DNA from: an uncultured Spirochaetota bacterium
GTDB lineage: Bacteria > Spirochaetota > Brevinematia > Brevinematales > JAOACQ01
Assembly (NCBI GenBank): GCA_963835575.1
Contig: CAWIGG010000004.1
Span: 1 to 64,000, forward strand
DNA length: 64,000 bases
Direction: 5' to 3'
Positions 41,301-47,300 of the stretch are shown here, piece by piece. Within the stretch, counting starts at the first letter, position 1, and every line of letters starts with the position of its first letter. Position numbers: made by a program.

Positions 41301-44300
41301 CATCGGCGTTATAAATAACGGTTTTATAATAAAAGTTATCGGCAAAGGAACAATGGAATACTGCTCAGATTTGTTTCAATTCCTGTCCGATAAAATCGAA
41401 AAGGAAAATGCGGATAATATTTATTTTGATTTATCTGAAACGTCTTATCTGGACAGTTCTTTTATCGGAGTCATTGTTTCCATTCAGAAAAAGCTCAGGA
41501 AAGTAAAAAATTCCAATCTCATCCTGCTTAATCCGTCTGAGAAAGCCAAAGAAATACTATCAACTATGGGTCTTCTTGAAATCATACCGATCCAGGAAGA
41601 TCATGTTTTTAAAAATATGGAAATCAGCGGGGAAATAAAAAAAAGACTGGAAAAAAATTATCAGGATATTCAGGTATTGCTTGAATCACATCAAAATCTT
41701 ATGGAACTGAATAGTGAGAATCGTAAACGCTTCGGTCTTGTTGAAGAAATGCTGAAAAAGGAACTGGAAAAGGAGAAAAAATGAATCAAATTCATCCCAC
41801 TGCTATCATCAGAGAGAATGTCAAACTGGGAGAAAATGTTATCATTCATCCTTATTCGGTTTTAGATGGAGATGTTGAGATTGGGAACGATTGTGTTATA
41901 GGTCCTATGTCTCATATCAAAGGATGGGTTAAAATAGGAAAAAACACTTCAATTCATTCCTTTTCAACAATCGGCGACGACCCGCAGGACTATTCGTTTA
42001 ACGGCGAGCCGGGATTGATAGAAATCGGCGAGAATTGCTTAATCCGCGAAGGTGTTACCATCAATACGCCGGTCCATGGGGATCAGGGAGAAAAAACAAT
42101 CATCGGCAATAATGTCTTTCTAATGATTAATTCCCATGTCGGCCACAATTCTAAAGTTGGAGATAACAGCATCCTGGTCAATGGAACACTGCTGGCCGGT
42201 TATGTGACTGTTGAAGAAAATGTAGTGACATCAGGAAATGTTGCTATCCATCAATTCTGCAGAGTTGGCGGTTTTGTTATGATTGGAGGTTTGAGCAAGG
42301 TTGTTCAGGATATACCTCCTTACTTTATGGCTGATGGAAACCCGGCAGTAGGGCATGGGCTCAATTCTATCGGCCTGAAAAGAAAAGGTTTCAACCAGGA
42401 ACAAAGAAATGTCATTAAAGATGCATATAAAATACTCTATTCCGGGAAGCTTCGCAAAGAAGTTTTAGAGGAACTAAAAGAGAAATATTCTCAAAGTGAA
42501 ATGATCAACCGTATTATTCAATTTGTAGAAAATTCAAAACGCGGAATAATCAAATATAATGAAGATTAATACAATTTTTGTTTCGGCAGGGGAAGTTTCA
42601 GGCGATATTCATGCAGCAGATCTTATGCAAAAACTCAAGAAATACAATCCCGCTATCCGGTTTGTCGGTCTCGGCGGAAAGAATATGATTTCAGCCGGCC
42701 TCAATTCCATTGCGGAAGATGTTTCAACTCTCAGCACAATGGGTTTAACCGCTCCTCTTCGCTTTTACTTTAAAAAATACAATTTATATAAAACCGCTCT
42801 TAAATATCTGAAAACAAATAAAATCACAGCTCTCATAATGGTCGATAATCAGGGCTTTAATATCCCTCTTGCAAAAGCCGCAAAAAAACTGAATATTTTC
42901 ACAATTTACTATTTTCCTCCCCATGTTTCCATCTGGGGAAAATGGAATGCCCCGATTCTAGCAAAAAATACCGATTTGATTATCGCTCCTTTTCATCACG
43001 ATTATTTAGTATATAAACAATATACCGGTAAAGTGTTTTTTTTCGGCCATCCTCTTCTTGATAAAATTACCGGCACAAAAAAGCCGCAGTCTATTTATAA
43101 AAAATACGGCCTGGACCCTAAGAAAAAGATTGTCTCCATTATGCCCGGCAGCCGTTATCAGGAATTAGAAACGCTCCTTCAGCCGATGCTGGATGCGAGT
43201 AGAATATTGATTGAAAATCATCATATCCAGATCATATTACCAGTCTCACACAAAGATTTTGAACCTTATATCATTAAAAAATTAAAAGAAAATAAACTTA
43301 TCAAAAAAATTAAAATAATAAAAAATGATTCTTACTCTGCCATGCGGATAGCCGATGTGAATATCCTCGCCTCAGGAACAGCATCTCTTGAATCGGTACT
43401 CCTAAAAAAGCCGCCTGTCATCTGTTATAAAATCTCGGCGAGTTCATTTTTTATCGGGAAACTGCTGGTAAAGAATAAAATGATCGGGCTTCCGAATATT
43501 ATTCTTAATAAAAAAATCTTTCCCGAGCTTCTTCAAAAAGGATGCTCTGCTGAAAATATGGTAAAGGAAGCGCTTTCATTTATTTATCCTGATAAAGCAA
43601 AAAAGTCGAAATTGTCAACCTATTATAATGAAATTAAAAAAAAGCTGGGTGAAAGACCGGTAATCAGCAAAGCCGCGGAATTGATCTATAAAAGGATTTT
43701 TGAATGAGCCGGATATTGGGAATAGACTACGGCAGCAAAAGGATAGGGCTTGCTATATCGGACAAACTCCGTATTGTTTCTTCTCCGCTGGCTGTTTTAC
43801 CGAATAATATTATATTCCCTGAAGAGCTAAAGAAAATCTGCACAAAATATCAAGTCAATAAAATTGTCATAGGTTATCCCTATTCTGAGAAATATACTGA
43901 AGCTTCCGAAGATGTCATGAGATTTTCTCAAGAATTAAAAAAATATATCAATATTGATATTGATTTTCAAAATGAGGAAAATAGTTCGATTTATTCTGAA
44001 AGTCTTCTTAAATCAATGGGAATTAAAGAAAAAAAAATTAAAGCATCGCTCGATAAATATGCGGCTCAAAAAATACTGGAAGATTATTTAAAATCAAAAT
44101 GTTAAACAGGCTGAGACTGGTTCTAAAAACCAAGATTTTTTAAAATATCATTAAAATTGATTTGACAAATTAATCGTAATAAAAAAAGATTCAAAAAATA
44201 TATCAATTGTTTATAATGAGCTTTCAATATTATATTAGAAAAACTAATAATATTTTTGAATTTTTCCTGTGATAGTTTGTTTTTTCATTAGATATTAATT

Positions 44301-47300
44301 AAATTCAAATTGGTATTTATTAAAAGCCCTTAAAAAGTCAAGTGTCTCTATTTTATGACACCTGTTAACAGATCAAAAGATATCTTATTCCAGTGTCAGA
44401 AATAAGAGAGTAATATTGTGGCATAGTATTTGCCACAATACATTAGGATTATTTATGCAATAATTACTCGGTTTTTTAATTTTTTTGGAGATATTAATGC
44501 GAAAGCAAAGAACCTTAAAAAGCAACATAGAATTTCAGGGAATCGGCCTTCACAGTGGTCACGCCTGCCAGGTCTTCGTAAAACCTGCCCCTGAAGATAC
44601 AGGAATCGTTTTCCTGAGTAAAAGCGGAGCGACAAATCAATTCATTCCTTATAATGTTGAAAACGTTGTTGATACACAAAATAATGTTTCTATCAGCAAC
44701 GGCAAAGCGCTTATTAAAACAGTGGAACATTTAGTTTCCGCTCTTTACGCCTTTCATATTGATAACTGCATTATAGAGTGCGGCTCAAATGAAATACCAA
44801 TTCTTGACGGCAGTGCCCAGTCATTTGTTAAAAGCATAATCCAGTCGGGCATTATTGAACAAACAAAAAATAGAGAAGAATTTAGAATAATCAATCCCAT
44901 CTGGGCCACTTTAGACGATAAATTTATTGTTGCTCTTCCCTACAACGGATTTAAACTCAGTTATACTATTTCTTTTCCGGATTCGCCAATCGGAACTCAA
45001 ACCTATAATACAGAAGTGAATACAGAGAATTTTGTAAATCAGATATCAGAGGCCAGAACATTCGGCTTTATTGAAGACCTTGAGAATTATAAGAAAAGCG
45101 GCTTGGTTCTCGGCGTTAATTTCGATAATGTCCAGGCTTACAGTAAAAAGGAAAATAAAGTACTCAATTCATCCCGCTATCATGATGAACCTGTCAGGCA
45201 CAAAATTCTGGATTTAATCGGAAGTCTTGGTCTTCTCAATTTCGATATAAAAGGCTTTATAATCGCTTATAAAGCCGGCCATACCATTGATGTCATGTTT
45301 GCAAAAAAGGTAATGAATATCTCGACCGGCCTCAATAAAATCCAGTCTGATCATTACTATCAAAGAGAGGGTAATTATTACTATCAGACCGCTAACATTA
45401 GCGATAATATTAAGATGCCCTCTTAATTAATTCCTTAATAATATCAATCTTTTTTATAATAACTTAATGCCTGTCAATAAGTTAAAGCAAGAGCTTTATT
45501 AAATCTAATGTTAAAAAGTAAGCTGCAAGTGTATTAAAAAGCACCCGATCCGGGAAAAATACCTTTTTTAATCTCTTTAAAGATTTGACAAACAAGCTAA
45601 GAAATTTTACAATAATGACTCGAATTTTATGAATGGGAGGATTCCATTGGCTACTCATATTAGATTGAAAAAGATTGGAAAATCGAAAAGGCCCTATTAT
45701 CGAATAGTAGTATTGGACAGCCGTGCTCCCCGTGATGGAGCTTATATAGACTGCCTTGGACATTACCAGCCGATTGAAGATGCCATCAACACTAATATTG
45801 ATTTGCAAAAATACGAAGAATGGATAAAAAAGGGTGCAAAGGTCAGTAATATCGTACGGGATATTGTTAAACGCGCTCGAAAAGCATAGTTTAATATTCT
45901 ATTTAATAAGGATAAGGGGTATTACGCAATGAAAGAGAAAGAGATTGTAGAATTAATAGTTACAAGTCTGGTGGACGATCCAACAGCAGTGAGTATTAAT
46001 GTCATTGACGGAGAGAAATCTACTATCTTAGAGCTTAAAGTCGGGCAGGGTGAAGTCGGTAAAGTCATCGGCAGGCATGGCGTTATTGCGAAATCAATTC
46101 GGACTATTGTTAACGCAGTATCAGTTAAAAATGGGCGAAGGGTAATACTAGAAATCCTGGATTAGGAAAATGGATTATCTTTCTATAGGAAAACTTGTTA
46201 AACCATACGGATTAAAAGGTCTGATTAAGACCGATTTTTATATAGATGATTTTAAAGATCTCAAGAGTTTTTCCCGTTTTTATATCGTAAATAAAATTGA
46301 GAACAGTGGTTATAAAGAGATCGTTTTTGAAAAAGTGACTCTGATGAACGGACGTTTTATAGTGAAAGTGGCCGGTTGTTCAGACAGAAACGAAGCGGAG
46401 CTTTTACGCAACAGGGAAATTTTCGTAGACGAGGCAGAGCTGCCGGAATTAAAGAAAGATGTTTTCTATATAAAAGATTTACAGGATTTGGAAGTTTATC
46501 ACAAAGGGACAGCAATAGGAAAAGTATCAAATGTCCTCTTTATAGCGAATAAAACTATGCTGATTGTGAAATTATCAAATAGTAGAGAAATTGTCTTTCC
46601 CTTTGAAAGCAAATATGTAGAAAAAGTGGAATTAAAAGATAAAGCTGTTTATGCTCAAAATATAGAGGATTTTTTTTAAGAGAGATAAACGTGGTAATTA
46701 ATATCGTTACCATTTTCCCGGAAATGATAACGGAATACCTCAAATACGGCATTATTTCAAGAGCCCTTAAAGAAGGGCTTCTCGGAGTAAATATATATAA
46801 CCTGCGGGATTTCGCCATCAATAAGAGAGGCCAGATTGATGATGGTATTTTCGGGCACGGCAAGGGAATGTTATTCCGCCCGGAACCGTTATATAAAGCT
46901 ATATCTGAAATTAAGAACAAGTTTCCCTCGAGTAAAGTCGTTTATTTAACTCCTCAGGGAAAGAGATTTAATAATTTTATGGCCAGGGAATTTTCTAAGC
47001 AGGAAAGCATAATTTTGATTTCAGCCCGTTATGAGGGCATTGATTCGCGTATTGAAGAAATGATAGTAGATGAGACGGTTTCAATCGGCGACTATGTTTT
47101 AACAGGCGGGGAATTGCCTGCGTTAATCACCCTGGATGCAGTAAGCCGTTTTGTAAAAGGTTCTATAAAAGAAAGTTCGGCACAGGATGAAAGTTTTGAG
47201 AACGGTCTTCTTGAGTACAGCCATTTTACAGAACCGCTGGAATTTAATGGATTAATAGTTCCCGAGGCATTAAGAAATGGGAATCATAATGAAATGGCAA

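Follow-up and report, generated by a model that had tools for sequence, protein, structure and literature searches.

The genes of spirochaetes of the class Brevinematia suggest that these bacteria make a real lipopolysaccharide (LPS) on an anchor without Kdo or a 4'-phosphate, that an LpxB paralogue of family TIGR03492 adds its first sugar, and that one family, the Brevinemataceae, does so without LpxC or LpxD. We consider this overall model rather probable. The window, that is, the whole stretch of DNA analyzed, comprises 64,000 nucleotides from an uncultured member of the class.

In agreement with the preliminary description of this DNA, lpxA, lpxB and lpxC lie in the window (Table 1), lpxD is present at C5:21454-22458, and all four are above cut-off in this genome. 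LpxA retains the catalytic His, and the positions equivalent to E. coli K76 and H144 are S and Y. The lpxL-type, msbA-like and lptB/C/F/G genes reported earlier were also found: lptC and lptB score above cut-off outside the window, and the lptA-, lptF-, lptG- and msbA-like genes fall under the NCBIfam cut-offs, with lptA and lptF/G above the Pfam ones. An LptD-like protein is a lead only. The LpxB paralogue said to lie near lpxL is the TIGR03492 protein of Table 1, which covers profile positions 1-395 and passes the full-length cut-off of 219.2 bits. This genome further has a GT9-hldE-hldD-like heptose operon, from which heptose may be part of the LPS, and the WbaP-type transferase likely starts an undecaprenyl-linked O-unit.

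Table 1. Features of the window that bear on the proposed LPS pathway
Feature	Position	Strand	Evidence
GnnB candidate, C3-type sugar-nucleotide aminotransferase	13075-14172	-	closest solved structure WbpE, E 1e-112
lpxA, UDP-sugar acyltransferase	41781-42569	+	TIGR01852, 290.8 bits, cut 231
lpxB, lipid A disaccharide synthase	42559-43707	+	TIGR00215, 261.7 bits, cut 190
ruvX/yqgF, conserved passenger gene outside the pathway	43704-44105	+	
lpxC, deacetylase	44485-45426	+	TIGR00325, 257 bits, cut 187
WbaP-type initiating sugar transferase	52411-53880	-	PF02397
TIGR03492 protein, LpxB paralogue, GT-B fold, proposed first non-Kdo sugar transferase	56750-57913	-	261 bits, cut 219
LpxL-family secondary acyltransferase	58870-59826	+	PF03279; under NCBIfam equivalog cut-offs

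The absence of LpxK, WaaA and KdsA claimed earlier was borne out and now extends to 43 genomes of the class. WaaA (PF04413) had no match in any of the 43 at E<=0.01, KdsA (TIGR01362) was above cut-off in 0/43, and LpxK (PF02606), previously sought in five genomes, was likewise above cut-off in 0/43, with three weak fragments reaching at best 23.3 bits against 27. The LpxK and WaaA profiles detected all positive controls (E. coli, Caulobacter and Bacteroides). As to a divergent WaaA that might have been missed, custom full-length profiles for WaaA and LpxK, made from retrieved loci, gave no match in this genome, nor did tblastn. The 29 weak KdsA matches (116-139 bits against 314) are proteins of about 340 amino acids and were discarded as DAHP synthases, which is what the one classified proved to be (510.7 bits, cut 335); a KdsB-like gene (62 bits against 255) is another cytidylyltransferase, and KdsB, KdsC and KdsD gave weak matches or none in this genome. 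Given 0/43 for each of the three enzymes, a Kdo-free, 4'-phosphate-free lipid A like that of cyanobacteria, as had been proposed, is well supported by gene content, and the anchor of Brevinematia is very probably Kdo-free and LpxK-free. For the UDP-diacylglucosamine pyrophosphatase step, the search gave no convincing candidate: LpxI is absent from this genome, LpxH was above cut-off in 0/4 class genomes, and LpxG in none of five (an LpxG-like protein here has 99 bits against a cut-off of 350, and there is none in the Brevinemataceae genome G004).

The TIGR03492 protein is present in 43/43 class genomes (25 above cut-off, one a contig-end fragment). Among 201 Spirochaetota genomes it occurs in 39 and WaaA in 89, with both in none. 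Neither is present in 21 Spirochaetota genomes, and LpxC is missing from 20 of these too; the lone LpxC-bearing exception is a 90% complete genome from a family in which 8/9 have TIGR03492. Every tested WaaA-less genome with lipid A but one carries TIGR03492. In other phyla, the genomes with the closest 50 of 435 TIGR03492 matches, for which completeness values are absent, have LpxC in 49/50 and lack WaaA in 41/50 and LpxK in 47/50. The nine with both TIGR03492 and WaaA are six Negativicutes, all LpxK-less, and three Armatimonadota; the eight of these nine that were placed in the TIGR03492 tree form a single clade there (SH-aLRT 99, quick tree). TIGR03492 is thus not a strict replacement for WaaA, and because the two coexist in three other lineages, its site could be 6' or 4'. 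Deinococcus radiodurans, used as a control, has TIGR03492 above cut-off with no match to LpxB, LpxC or LpxD, so the protein can act without lipid A. Since the genomes are related, these counts overstate independence, and as the three spirochaete groups stay apart in the tree, we propose neither a donor nor vertical inheritance.

Gene order ties the protein to LPS synthesis. In diderm Firmicutes (lpxC-fabZ-lpxA-lpxI-lpxB-Y-msbA-TIGR03492-lpt, where Y is a second paralogue), the TIGR03492 gene lies between msbA and lpt, the slot occupied by waaA-kds in relatives; a Sporomusaceae genome has lpxB-msbA-waaA-kdsB-kdsA-kdsD, and an Armatimonadota genome lpxB-msbA-waaA-lpxK. Another LPS gene is present in 49 of 69 non-Brevinematia loci, and in the class itself 12 of 30 loci have a WaaL-like gene no more than 1.5 kb away. 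Among 12 long relatives, the fusion partner is an O-antigen ligase domain in seven, a GT2 in four and LpxK in one; a further search was similar. Also against a strict replacement of WaaA, one metagenome locus has the cluster lpxI-lpxB-msbA-[lpxK-TIGR03492 fusion]-kdsA-kdsD-waaA-kdsB; the donor loop of the fused protein is altered. TIGR03492 and WaaA occur together in locus L386.

In sequence, the TIGR03492 protein matches the LpxB profile (99.8%, E 1.6e-28) better than that of WaaA (96.6%, E 6.5e-10). Its D109 aligns with LpxB D96, which we take to be the catalytic base in E. coli LpxB, and LPGSR and GT motifs are common to both. The predicted structure (pLDDT 96) has a GT-B fold, and the nucleotide-binding motifs and the acidic base are in place. 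In structure the protein comes closest to UDP-GlcNAc 2-epimerases (Z 24.4, rmsd 4.8, 338 aligned), with WaaA at 19.7 and LpxB at 18.2, and the best sequence match is also to 2-epimerases; fold searches did not separate the three families. A divergent WaaA orthologue was rejected as an identity for this protein, which has no PF04413 match, is nearer to LpxB and coexists with WaaA in L386.

By gene content, an acylated beta-1,6 disaccharide is assembled by LpxA, LpxC, LpxD and LpxB. In the pathway that we propose, the TIGR03492 protein would transfer a first sugar to it from a nucleotide-sugar, most likely at the 6'-OH, the site at which WaaA adds Kdo. This position is suggested because LpxB itself glycosylates a 6-OH of acylated glucosamine. 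We find it likely that the protein works on the lipid A anchor; that it adds the first sugar at 6' is a more tentative assignment. GT2, GT4 and GT9 enzymes would then lengthen the core, MsbA would flip the lipid, WaaL would add O-antigen and Lpt would export the product. Contrary to the preliminary description, in which the pathway stops at the disaccharide, it probably continues: an LpxL-type acyltransferase, an O-antigen ligase and an initiating sugar transferase are retained in the class, TIGR03492 is universal there and tied to LPS genes by fusion and synteny, and this genome has a heptose operon.

Retention of LpxA/C/D/B throughout the class, as described earlier, does not hold for the Brevinemataceae. 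LpxC was found in 29/43 and LpxD in 31/43 class genomes, and each is missing from all 12 Brevinemataceae; outside this family LpxC is present in 29/31, the gaps being two incomplete genomes (57% and 82%), and LpxD in 31/31. The uneven counts obtained earlier (LpxB 37, LpxC 27, LpxD 26) thus reflect a family-wide loss and not noise. In Brevinemataceae, lpxC is missing at its usual position and genome-wide; LpxB and TIGR03492 are kept in 12/12, and every genome of the family searched for LpxA, LpxL and LptFG (4-5 genomes) has them. Next to lpxL, the family has a small gene that was first read as an acyl carrier protein and encodes GroES. In a quick-search LpxC tree, Brevinematia form one clade (SH-aLRT 95) apart from a Firmicutes/Aerophobetes clade; the tree does not settle their position among spirochaetes.

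Leptospira and Acidithiobacillus make GlcN3N lipid A via GnnA and GnnB, and in common with them this genome has a GnnA-like gene and a C3-aminotransferase. The former best matches the solved structure 7BVJ (E 3e-41) and, as a family, UDP-GlcNAc 3-dehydrogenase. Both genes are under the family cut-offs (213 bits against 450, for an archaeal model) and unlinked to lpx in this genome; two other spirochaetes carry close homologues in the vicinity of waaA. The GnnB-like gene has a syntenic orthologue in G004, of which 52% was read without a GnnA-like gene coming to light. These genes suggest an amino-sugar route, with a probable 2,3-diaminoglucose backbone, by which LpxC would possibly be dispensable; alternatively, they could supply O-antigen. 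In the reading that we favour for Brevinemataceae, C2 would stay N-acetylated, and the lipid would bear only LpxA chains and LpxL secondary chains. Retention of the N-acetyl group is possible, though we stop short of calling it probable. The joint reading, in which TIGR03492 is the first glycosyltransferase of Kdo-free LPS in Brevinematia, Cyanobacteria, Halanaerobiales and other diderms and Brevinemataceae make their anchor with LpxA and LpxB alone, is as a whole somewhat unlikely. In it, LpxA would N-acylate UDP-GlcNAc3N with no need for the pull of LpxC, C2 would remain acetylated, and the product would be glycosylated and then exported by Lpt.

Several other explanations were weighed. Divergent WaaA, LpxK and KdsA could all be there and have been overlooked, given that profile absence is never proof and 13/43 genomes are less than 90% complete; this is extremely improbable, as the searches would have had to overlook three independent genes throughout 43 genomes, of which two are single contigs, the same WaaA profile is above cut-off in 89/201 Spirochaetota genomes, and the custom profiles were negative in this genome. 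An unlikely but better alternative has the TIGR03492 protein acting at the 4'-OH, where a residue such as a hexose or uronic acid would take the place of the phosphate, or at some further site, with the core primed at 6' by another enzyme of the GT2 or GT4 type. It draws on the excess of LpxK-less over WaaA-less genomes (47 against 41) among the closest 50 of 435 matches, the six LpxK-less Negativicutes, the GT2 genes near TIGR03492 in 34/69 loci and the galacturonic acid at 4' in Synechococcus given in the available part of PMC4515613; with Y alongside in 45/69 loci, the two sites may also be split between the paralogues, but this genome has TIGR03492 and no Y. However, LpxK is also missing from 11/20 WaaA-bearing, TIGR03492-less spirochaetes, and this loss, together with the LpxK-TIGR03492 fusions, favours a site other than 4'; the three Armatimonadota with both proteins and the near-universal presence of TIGR03492 in WaaA-less lipid A genomes point the same way. 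We find it quite improbable that the protein, as a GT-B enzyme of hydrolase or epimerase-like type, stands in for LpxH/I/G by freeing the acylated sugar from UDP, giving LpxB a phosphate-free acceptor. Such a role would suit the 2-epimerase matches, the lack of LpxI here and of LpxH and LpxG above cut-off in four and five class genomes, and the absence of both phosphates from cyanobacterial lipid A (PMC4515613, same part), but lpxI is clustered with TIGR03492 at 14/69 loci and in L386, a UshA-like phosphoesterase is fused to or precedes it in P0258 and L224, and the WaaL fusions indicate a late step. Export of a bare acylated disaccharide, with TIGR03492 as a spare paralogue, is similarly improbable: WaaA and Kdo are lacking and few core genes lie near lpx in this genome, but TIGR03492 is kept even in 1.4-Mb genomes, WaaL is adjacent or fused to it, and WbaP-type and heptose genes are present. 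In principle, WaaL might instead act in the O-glycosylation of proteins.

For Brevinemataceae the alternative weighs more heavily: unrelated enzymes may replace LpxC and LpxD to give an ordinary tetra-acyl backbone, or the lpx genes may be leftovers, a serious possibility that we rate just below N-acetyl retention. In E. coli, according to the available part of PMC4402001, LpxA works reversibly and the pathway becomes committed at LpxC, and only half of one Brevinemataceae genome was read directly. Against replacement, 118 G004-specific proteins (200-450 amino acids, from 52% of the genome) include no deacetylase or N-acyltransferase family; against leftovers, the frames are intact and pN (0.15-0.36) is below pS (0.58-0.77), indicating purifying selection; the joint loss of two unlinked genes also speaks against this alternative. 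If the joint reading above is correct, Brevinemataceae would have a natural LPS pathway without the "committed step". A family with LpxA, LpxB and Lpt but no LpxC or LpxD challenges LpxC as universal in that role. Brevinemataceae are fish- and rodent-associated spirochaetes, with Brevinema common in the gut, and the unusual, lightly acylated anchor predicted for them would bear on host sensing.

The nine-enzyme Raetz pathway of E. coli leads to Kdo2-lipid A. Brevinematia share with it the early enzymes and the LpxL-type, MsbA-type, Lpt and WaaL families, but have no LpxH/I/G above cut-off and no LpxK, KdsA or WaaA, with TIGR03492 instead. A four-enzyme, Kdo-free lipid A made by LpxA/C/D/B has been described for Cyanobacteria and Dictyoglomi in the accessible text of Opiyo 2010 (PMC3087551). 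In common with these, LpxA/C/D/B are present here and LpxK, WaaA and recognizable LpxH/I absent, and a Synechococcus control has TIGR03492 above cut-off (and no PF03279 match); the spirochaete host, the LpxL-family gene, the GnnA/B-like genes and the family without LpxC/LpxD set Brevinematia apart. LPS of the cyanobacterial type lacks Kdo, heptose and phosphate, whereas the heptose genes of this genome suggest that heptose may be present here. An extra uronic acid is reported at 4' in Synechococcus and at 6' in Oscillatoria (PMC4515613, in part). No enzyme that starts Kdo-free LPS was named, TIGR03492 or "lipid-A-disaccharide synthase-related" was not mentioned, and no study of Brevinema or Brevinematales LPS was found in the literature searched, which mostly excludes subscription journals; TIGR03492 would be a concrete, testable candidate. 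The Vi antigen, whose diacyl-HexNAc anchor is the product of VexE (PMC13721041, part available), offers a precedent for an acylated, N-acetylated sugar that anchors a glycan, but that anchor is a monosaccharide made by an LpxL-type enzyme, whereas Brevinemataceae have LpxA and LpxB and a disaccharide is predicted.

According to the available portion of a recent phylum study (PMC12236494), LPS is known among spirochaetes from Leptospira alone; our reading would add one class and two more families, whose LPS is of a different type. Unlike Brevinematia, family f15 (presumed Leptospiraceae) has WaaA in 31/31 genomes and LpxK in the single genome searched for it, and lacks TIGR03492. Diderm Firmicutes share the lpx-msbA-lpt order in their outer-membrane cluster, for which Antunes 2016 (PMC5007114, in part) gives lpxACDIBK/waaA/kdsABCD for Negativicutes and Halanaerobiales together. 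In contrast to that list, the sampled Halanaerobiales-labelled genomes have TIGR03492 and no WaaA or LpxK, and six Negativicutes lack LpxK, a difference that may already be contained in Supplementary file 1 of Antunes 2016.

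The preliminary description placed lpxA, lpxB and lpxC together in this window, which we confirm, and reported LpxK, WaaA and KdsA as missing from the class Brevinematia. The latter also stands across all 43 class genomes (30 of them at least 90% complete): LpxK and KdsA exceeded cut-off in 0/43, and a WaaA profile search matched none. The same WaaA profile matched 89 of 201 sampled Spirochaetota genomes and is thus sensitive in this phylum. The 29 weak KdsA matches are proteins of ~340 aa and were rejected as KdsA, the one classified being a DAHP synthase. The genome containing the window (4.39 Mb, 94% complete) has its closest named relatives in Brevinematales, such as Thermospira aquatica (55%). 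Neither full-length profiles for WaaA (21 seeds) and for LpxK (12 seeds) nor tblastn queries with WaaA, LpxK, LpxI and KdsC gave a match in it. None of LpxI (this genome), LpxH (four class genomes) and LpxG (five class genomes) was above cut-off. In addition to the genes tabulated, lpxD, lptB and lptC exceed cut-off here, and lptA-, lptF-, lptG- and msbA-like genes and an LptD-like protein are present.

Features of the lipid A region and related loci (window positions unless prefixed)
Feature	Position	Strand	Remark
lpxA	41781-42569	+	over NCBIfam cut-off
lpxB	42559-43707	+	over NCBIfam cut-off
ruvX			between lpxB and lpxC
lpxC	44485-45426	+	over NCBIfam cut-off
TIGR03492 gene (X)	56750-57913	-	LpxB paralogue
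LpxL-family gene	58870-59826
O-antigen ligase	contig 68680-69945		11 kb from X, just past window end
C3-aminotransferase	13075-14172		WbpE match, E 1e-112
GnnA-like dehydrogenase	C6:177048-178010		this genome; best solved match 7BVJ, E 3e-41
dtd, MBL hydrolase, tatD, M23 peptidase, bactofilin, STAS genes	37542-41784		upstream of lpxA
Five consecutive ORFs	2006-9028	-	Tn7-type transposon core-like (TnsA/B/C/D-like; by eye from sequences)
GT9-hldE-hldD-like heptose operon	G000:C6:144178-147741		this genome; transposase-like gene adjoining
Second full-score lpxB copy	G023:C3:87908-89038		one genome of the same genus
Y, second LpxB paralogue	L190:4362-5609		adjoins lpxB or X
Y	L274:7761-9035		family f14
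LpxK-TIGR03492 fusion	L386:10001-12385

This gene pattern is the same as that of the "four-enzyme pathway" known from Cyanobacteria and Dictyoglomi in the parts of PMC3087551 consulted; the LPS of those groups lacks Kdo and phosphate (PMC4515613, in part). The proposed likeness to cyanobacterial Kdo-free lipid A is therefore correct at its core but of an already known type: Brevinematia are an added member, real and ordinary. Whatever goes beyond gene content, here and below, is what we infer. Elsewhere, genes for Kdo transfer occur without the 4'-kinase: among 20 spirochaete genomes, each representing one family, 11 had WaaA without an LpxK match, and the same holds for six Negativicutes genomes.

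An alignment of 26 Brevinematia LpxA proteins retains the catalytic His, including in the window gene. The equivalent of Escherichia coli H144 is Y, F, S, M or C in all 26, that of K76 is mostly S, and HD is changed to HN. Given the roles of K76 and H144 in E. coli, sugar recognition may be altered. In four Halanaerobiales-labelled genomes, LpxA-like genes beside lpxC have the catalytic His motif changed to HISANC, without HQ. The dtd-to-STAS block keeps its place upstream of lpxA across several families of the order.

The claim that the pathway stops at the disaccharide is not borne out: the presence of X in 43/43 class genomes, its proximity and fusions to WaaL, and its synteny with lpt and msbA speak for continuation. 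In the Spirochaetota sample, X was found in 39/201 genomes (30/30 of the class, 8/9 of family f14, 1/1 of f27) and WaaA in 89, and none had both; the genomes in our X counts are related rather than independent. All nine X-bearing genomes outside the class had LpxC and lacked LpxK and WaaA, and their X clusters with Bacillota rather than Brevinematia copies. LpxC was absent from 20 of 21 genomes checked among the 73 with neither X nor WaaA.

Across 69 non-Brevinematia X loci, neighbors were msbA-like genes (35), GT2 (34), lptFG (18), lpxB (17) and WaaL (16), and WaaL lay within 1.5 kb of X at 12/30 class loci. The order in diderm Firmicutes is lpxC-fabZ-lpxA-lpxI-lpxB-Y-msbA-X-lptA-lptB-lptFG; a Sporomusaceae genome has waaA-kdsB-kdsA-kdsD in the slot of X, and an Armatimonadota genome has waaA-lpxK there. 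Twelve long X relatives were fused to an O-antigen ligase (7), GT2 (4) or LpxK (1). Another 14 long matches, chosen from 150 listed representatives and sharing three proteins with the first set, comprised fusions to O-antigen ligase (4), GT2 (5), LpxK (1) and a phosphoesterase (1) and three without an extra domain.

X is predicted to adopt a GT-B fold (pLDDT 96), its profile matches LpxB (99.8%, E 1.6e-28) more closely than it does WaaA (96.6%, E 6.5e-10), and its D109 aligns with LpxB D96. LpxB transfers its sugar to the 6-OH of an acylated glucosamine, so the simplest inference for its paralogue X is that it would act on the 6'-OH of the disaccharide. We propose X as a candidate first sugar transferase of Kdo-free LPS, a role not found in the literature searched.

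The wider distribution of X speaks against a direct replacement of WaaA. Of 435 X relatives in an all-species genome scan, the best 80 were retained; among 50 of their 69 non-Brevinematia members, 49 genomes had LpxC, nine WaaA and three LpxK. X and WaaA occur together in six Negativicutes and three Armatimonadota genomes, and eight of these nine X copies, placed in the X tree, form one clade. X also coexists with WaaA at L386, which is related to a Synergistaceae protein: an LpxK-X fusion there lies within a complete Kdo-lipid A cluster and is followed by kdsA, kdsD, waaA and kdsB. P0195 and P0299 are further LpxK-X fusions. In the copies of X fused to LpxK, the NEQ motif is altered and the GPQ loop is missing. 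In the Deinococcus radiodurans control, X was present and LpxB, LpxC and LpxD had no match, and in fold comparisons UDP-GlcNAc 2-epimerases rank first for X, by a narrow margin over many glycosyltransferases. X is thus a GT-B enzyme linked to LPS and does not stand in for WaaA one for one; it may act at 6' or at 4'. Galacturonic acid is placed at the 4' position for Synechococcus and at the 6' position for Oscillatoria in a review (PMC4515613, in part). The parts of PMC5007114 consulted list lpxK, waaA and kds jointly for Halanaerobiales and Negativicutes, which does not fit the genomes sampled here.

Y, a protein of ~400-430 aa with NSPGEV and GGD motifs, is encoded immediately next to lpxB or X in 45/69 X loci and is also present in f14; it is absent from this genome. 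Y may supply the second (4' or 6') decoration. In six Firmicutes outer-membrane clusters, X or msbA adjoins a nucleotidyltransferase gene whose best family, below cut-off, is mannose-1-phosphate guanylyltransferase; its product may make the donor of X there.

LpxA/C/D/B are not kept class-wide, as had been proposed. Family f2, assigned to Brevinema/Brevinemataceae by nearest proteins (12 genomes, 1.4-2.3 Mb, three genera, seven at least 90% complete), has LpxC in 0/12 versus 29/31 in the rest of the class and LpxD in 0/12 versus 31/31. Queries with LpxC (without a positive control) and LpxD of this genome found orthologues in 0/5 f2 genomes, and lpxC is missing from its position after ruvX. 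The family retains LpxB and X (12/12 each), LpxA over cut-off (5/5), LpxL-type (5/5) and LptFG (4/4), with LptA/B/C present in the f2 genome G004 and WaaL adjoining X at 4/5 loci. From these genomes, f2 appears to be a family-wide variant free of LpxC and LpxD, not found in the literature searched. In E. coli, LpxA O-acylates reversibly and the committed step is that of LpxC (PMC4402001, in part), so this loss calls for explanation.

We tentatively favor, at a little under an even chance, an f2 anchor that retains N-acetyl. LpxA would acylate the 3-amine of UDP-GlcNAc3N, a reaction that is favorable without LpxC, and the 2-N-acetyl groups would stay. Candidate genes for this sugar are present in our genome: the GnnA-like dehydrogenase (best family UDP-GlcNAc 3-dehydrogenase, below cut-off) best matches a structure that we take to be A. 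ferrooxidans GnnA, and for the C3-aminotransferase, an orthologue lies in synteny in G004 and homologues are found within the f14 lptD-like...lpxB-X cluster. Alternatively, and with only slightly lower probability, f2 has hidden substitutes for LpxC and LpxD, or its lpx genes are leftovers; their reading frames are intact, with pN 0.15-0.36 versus a near-saturated pS of 0.58-0.77. Neither a GnnA-like gene nor a substitute deacetylase was seen in the 52% of G004 read, which favors neither reading. Some other explanation is unlikely. The heptose operon listed in the table lies in a Kdo-free genome.
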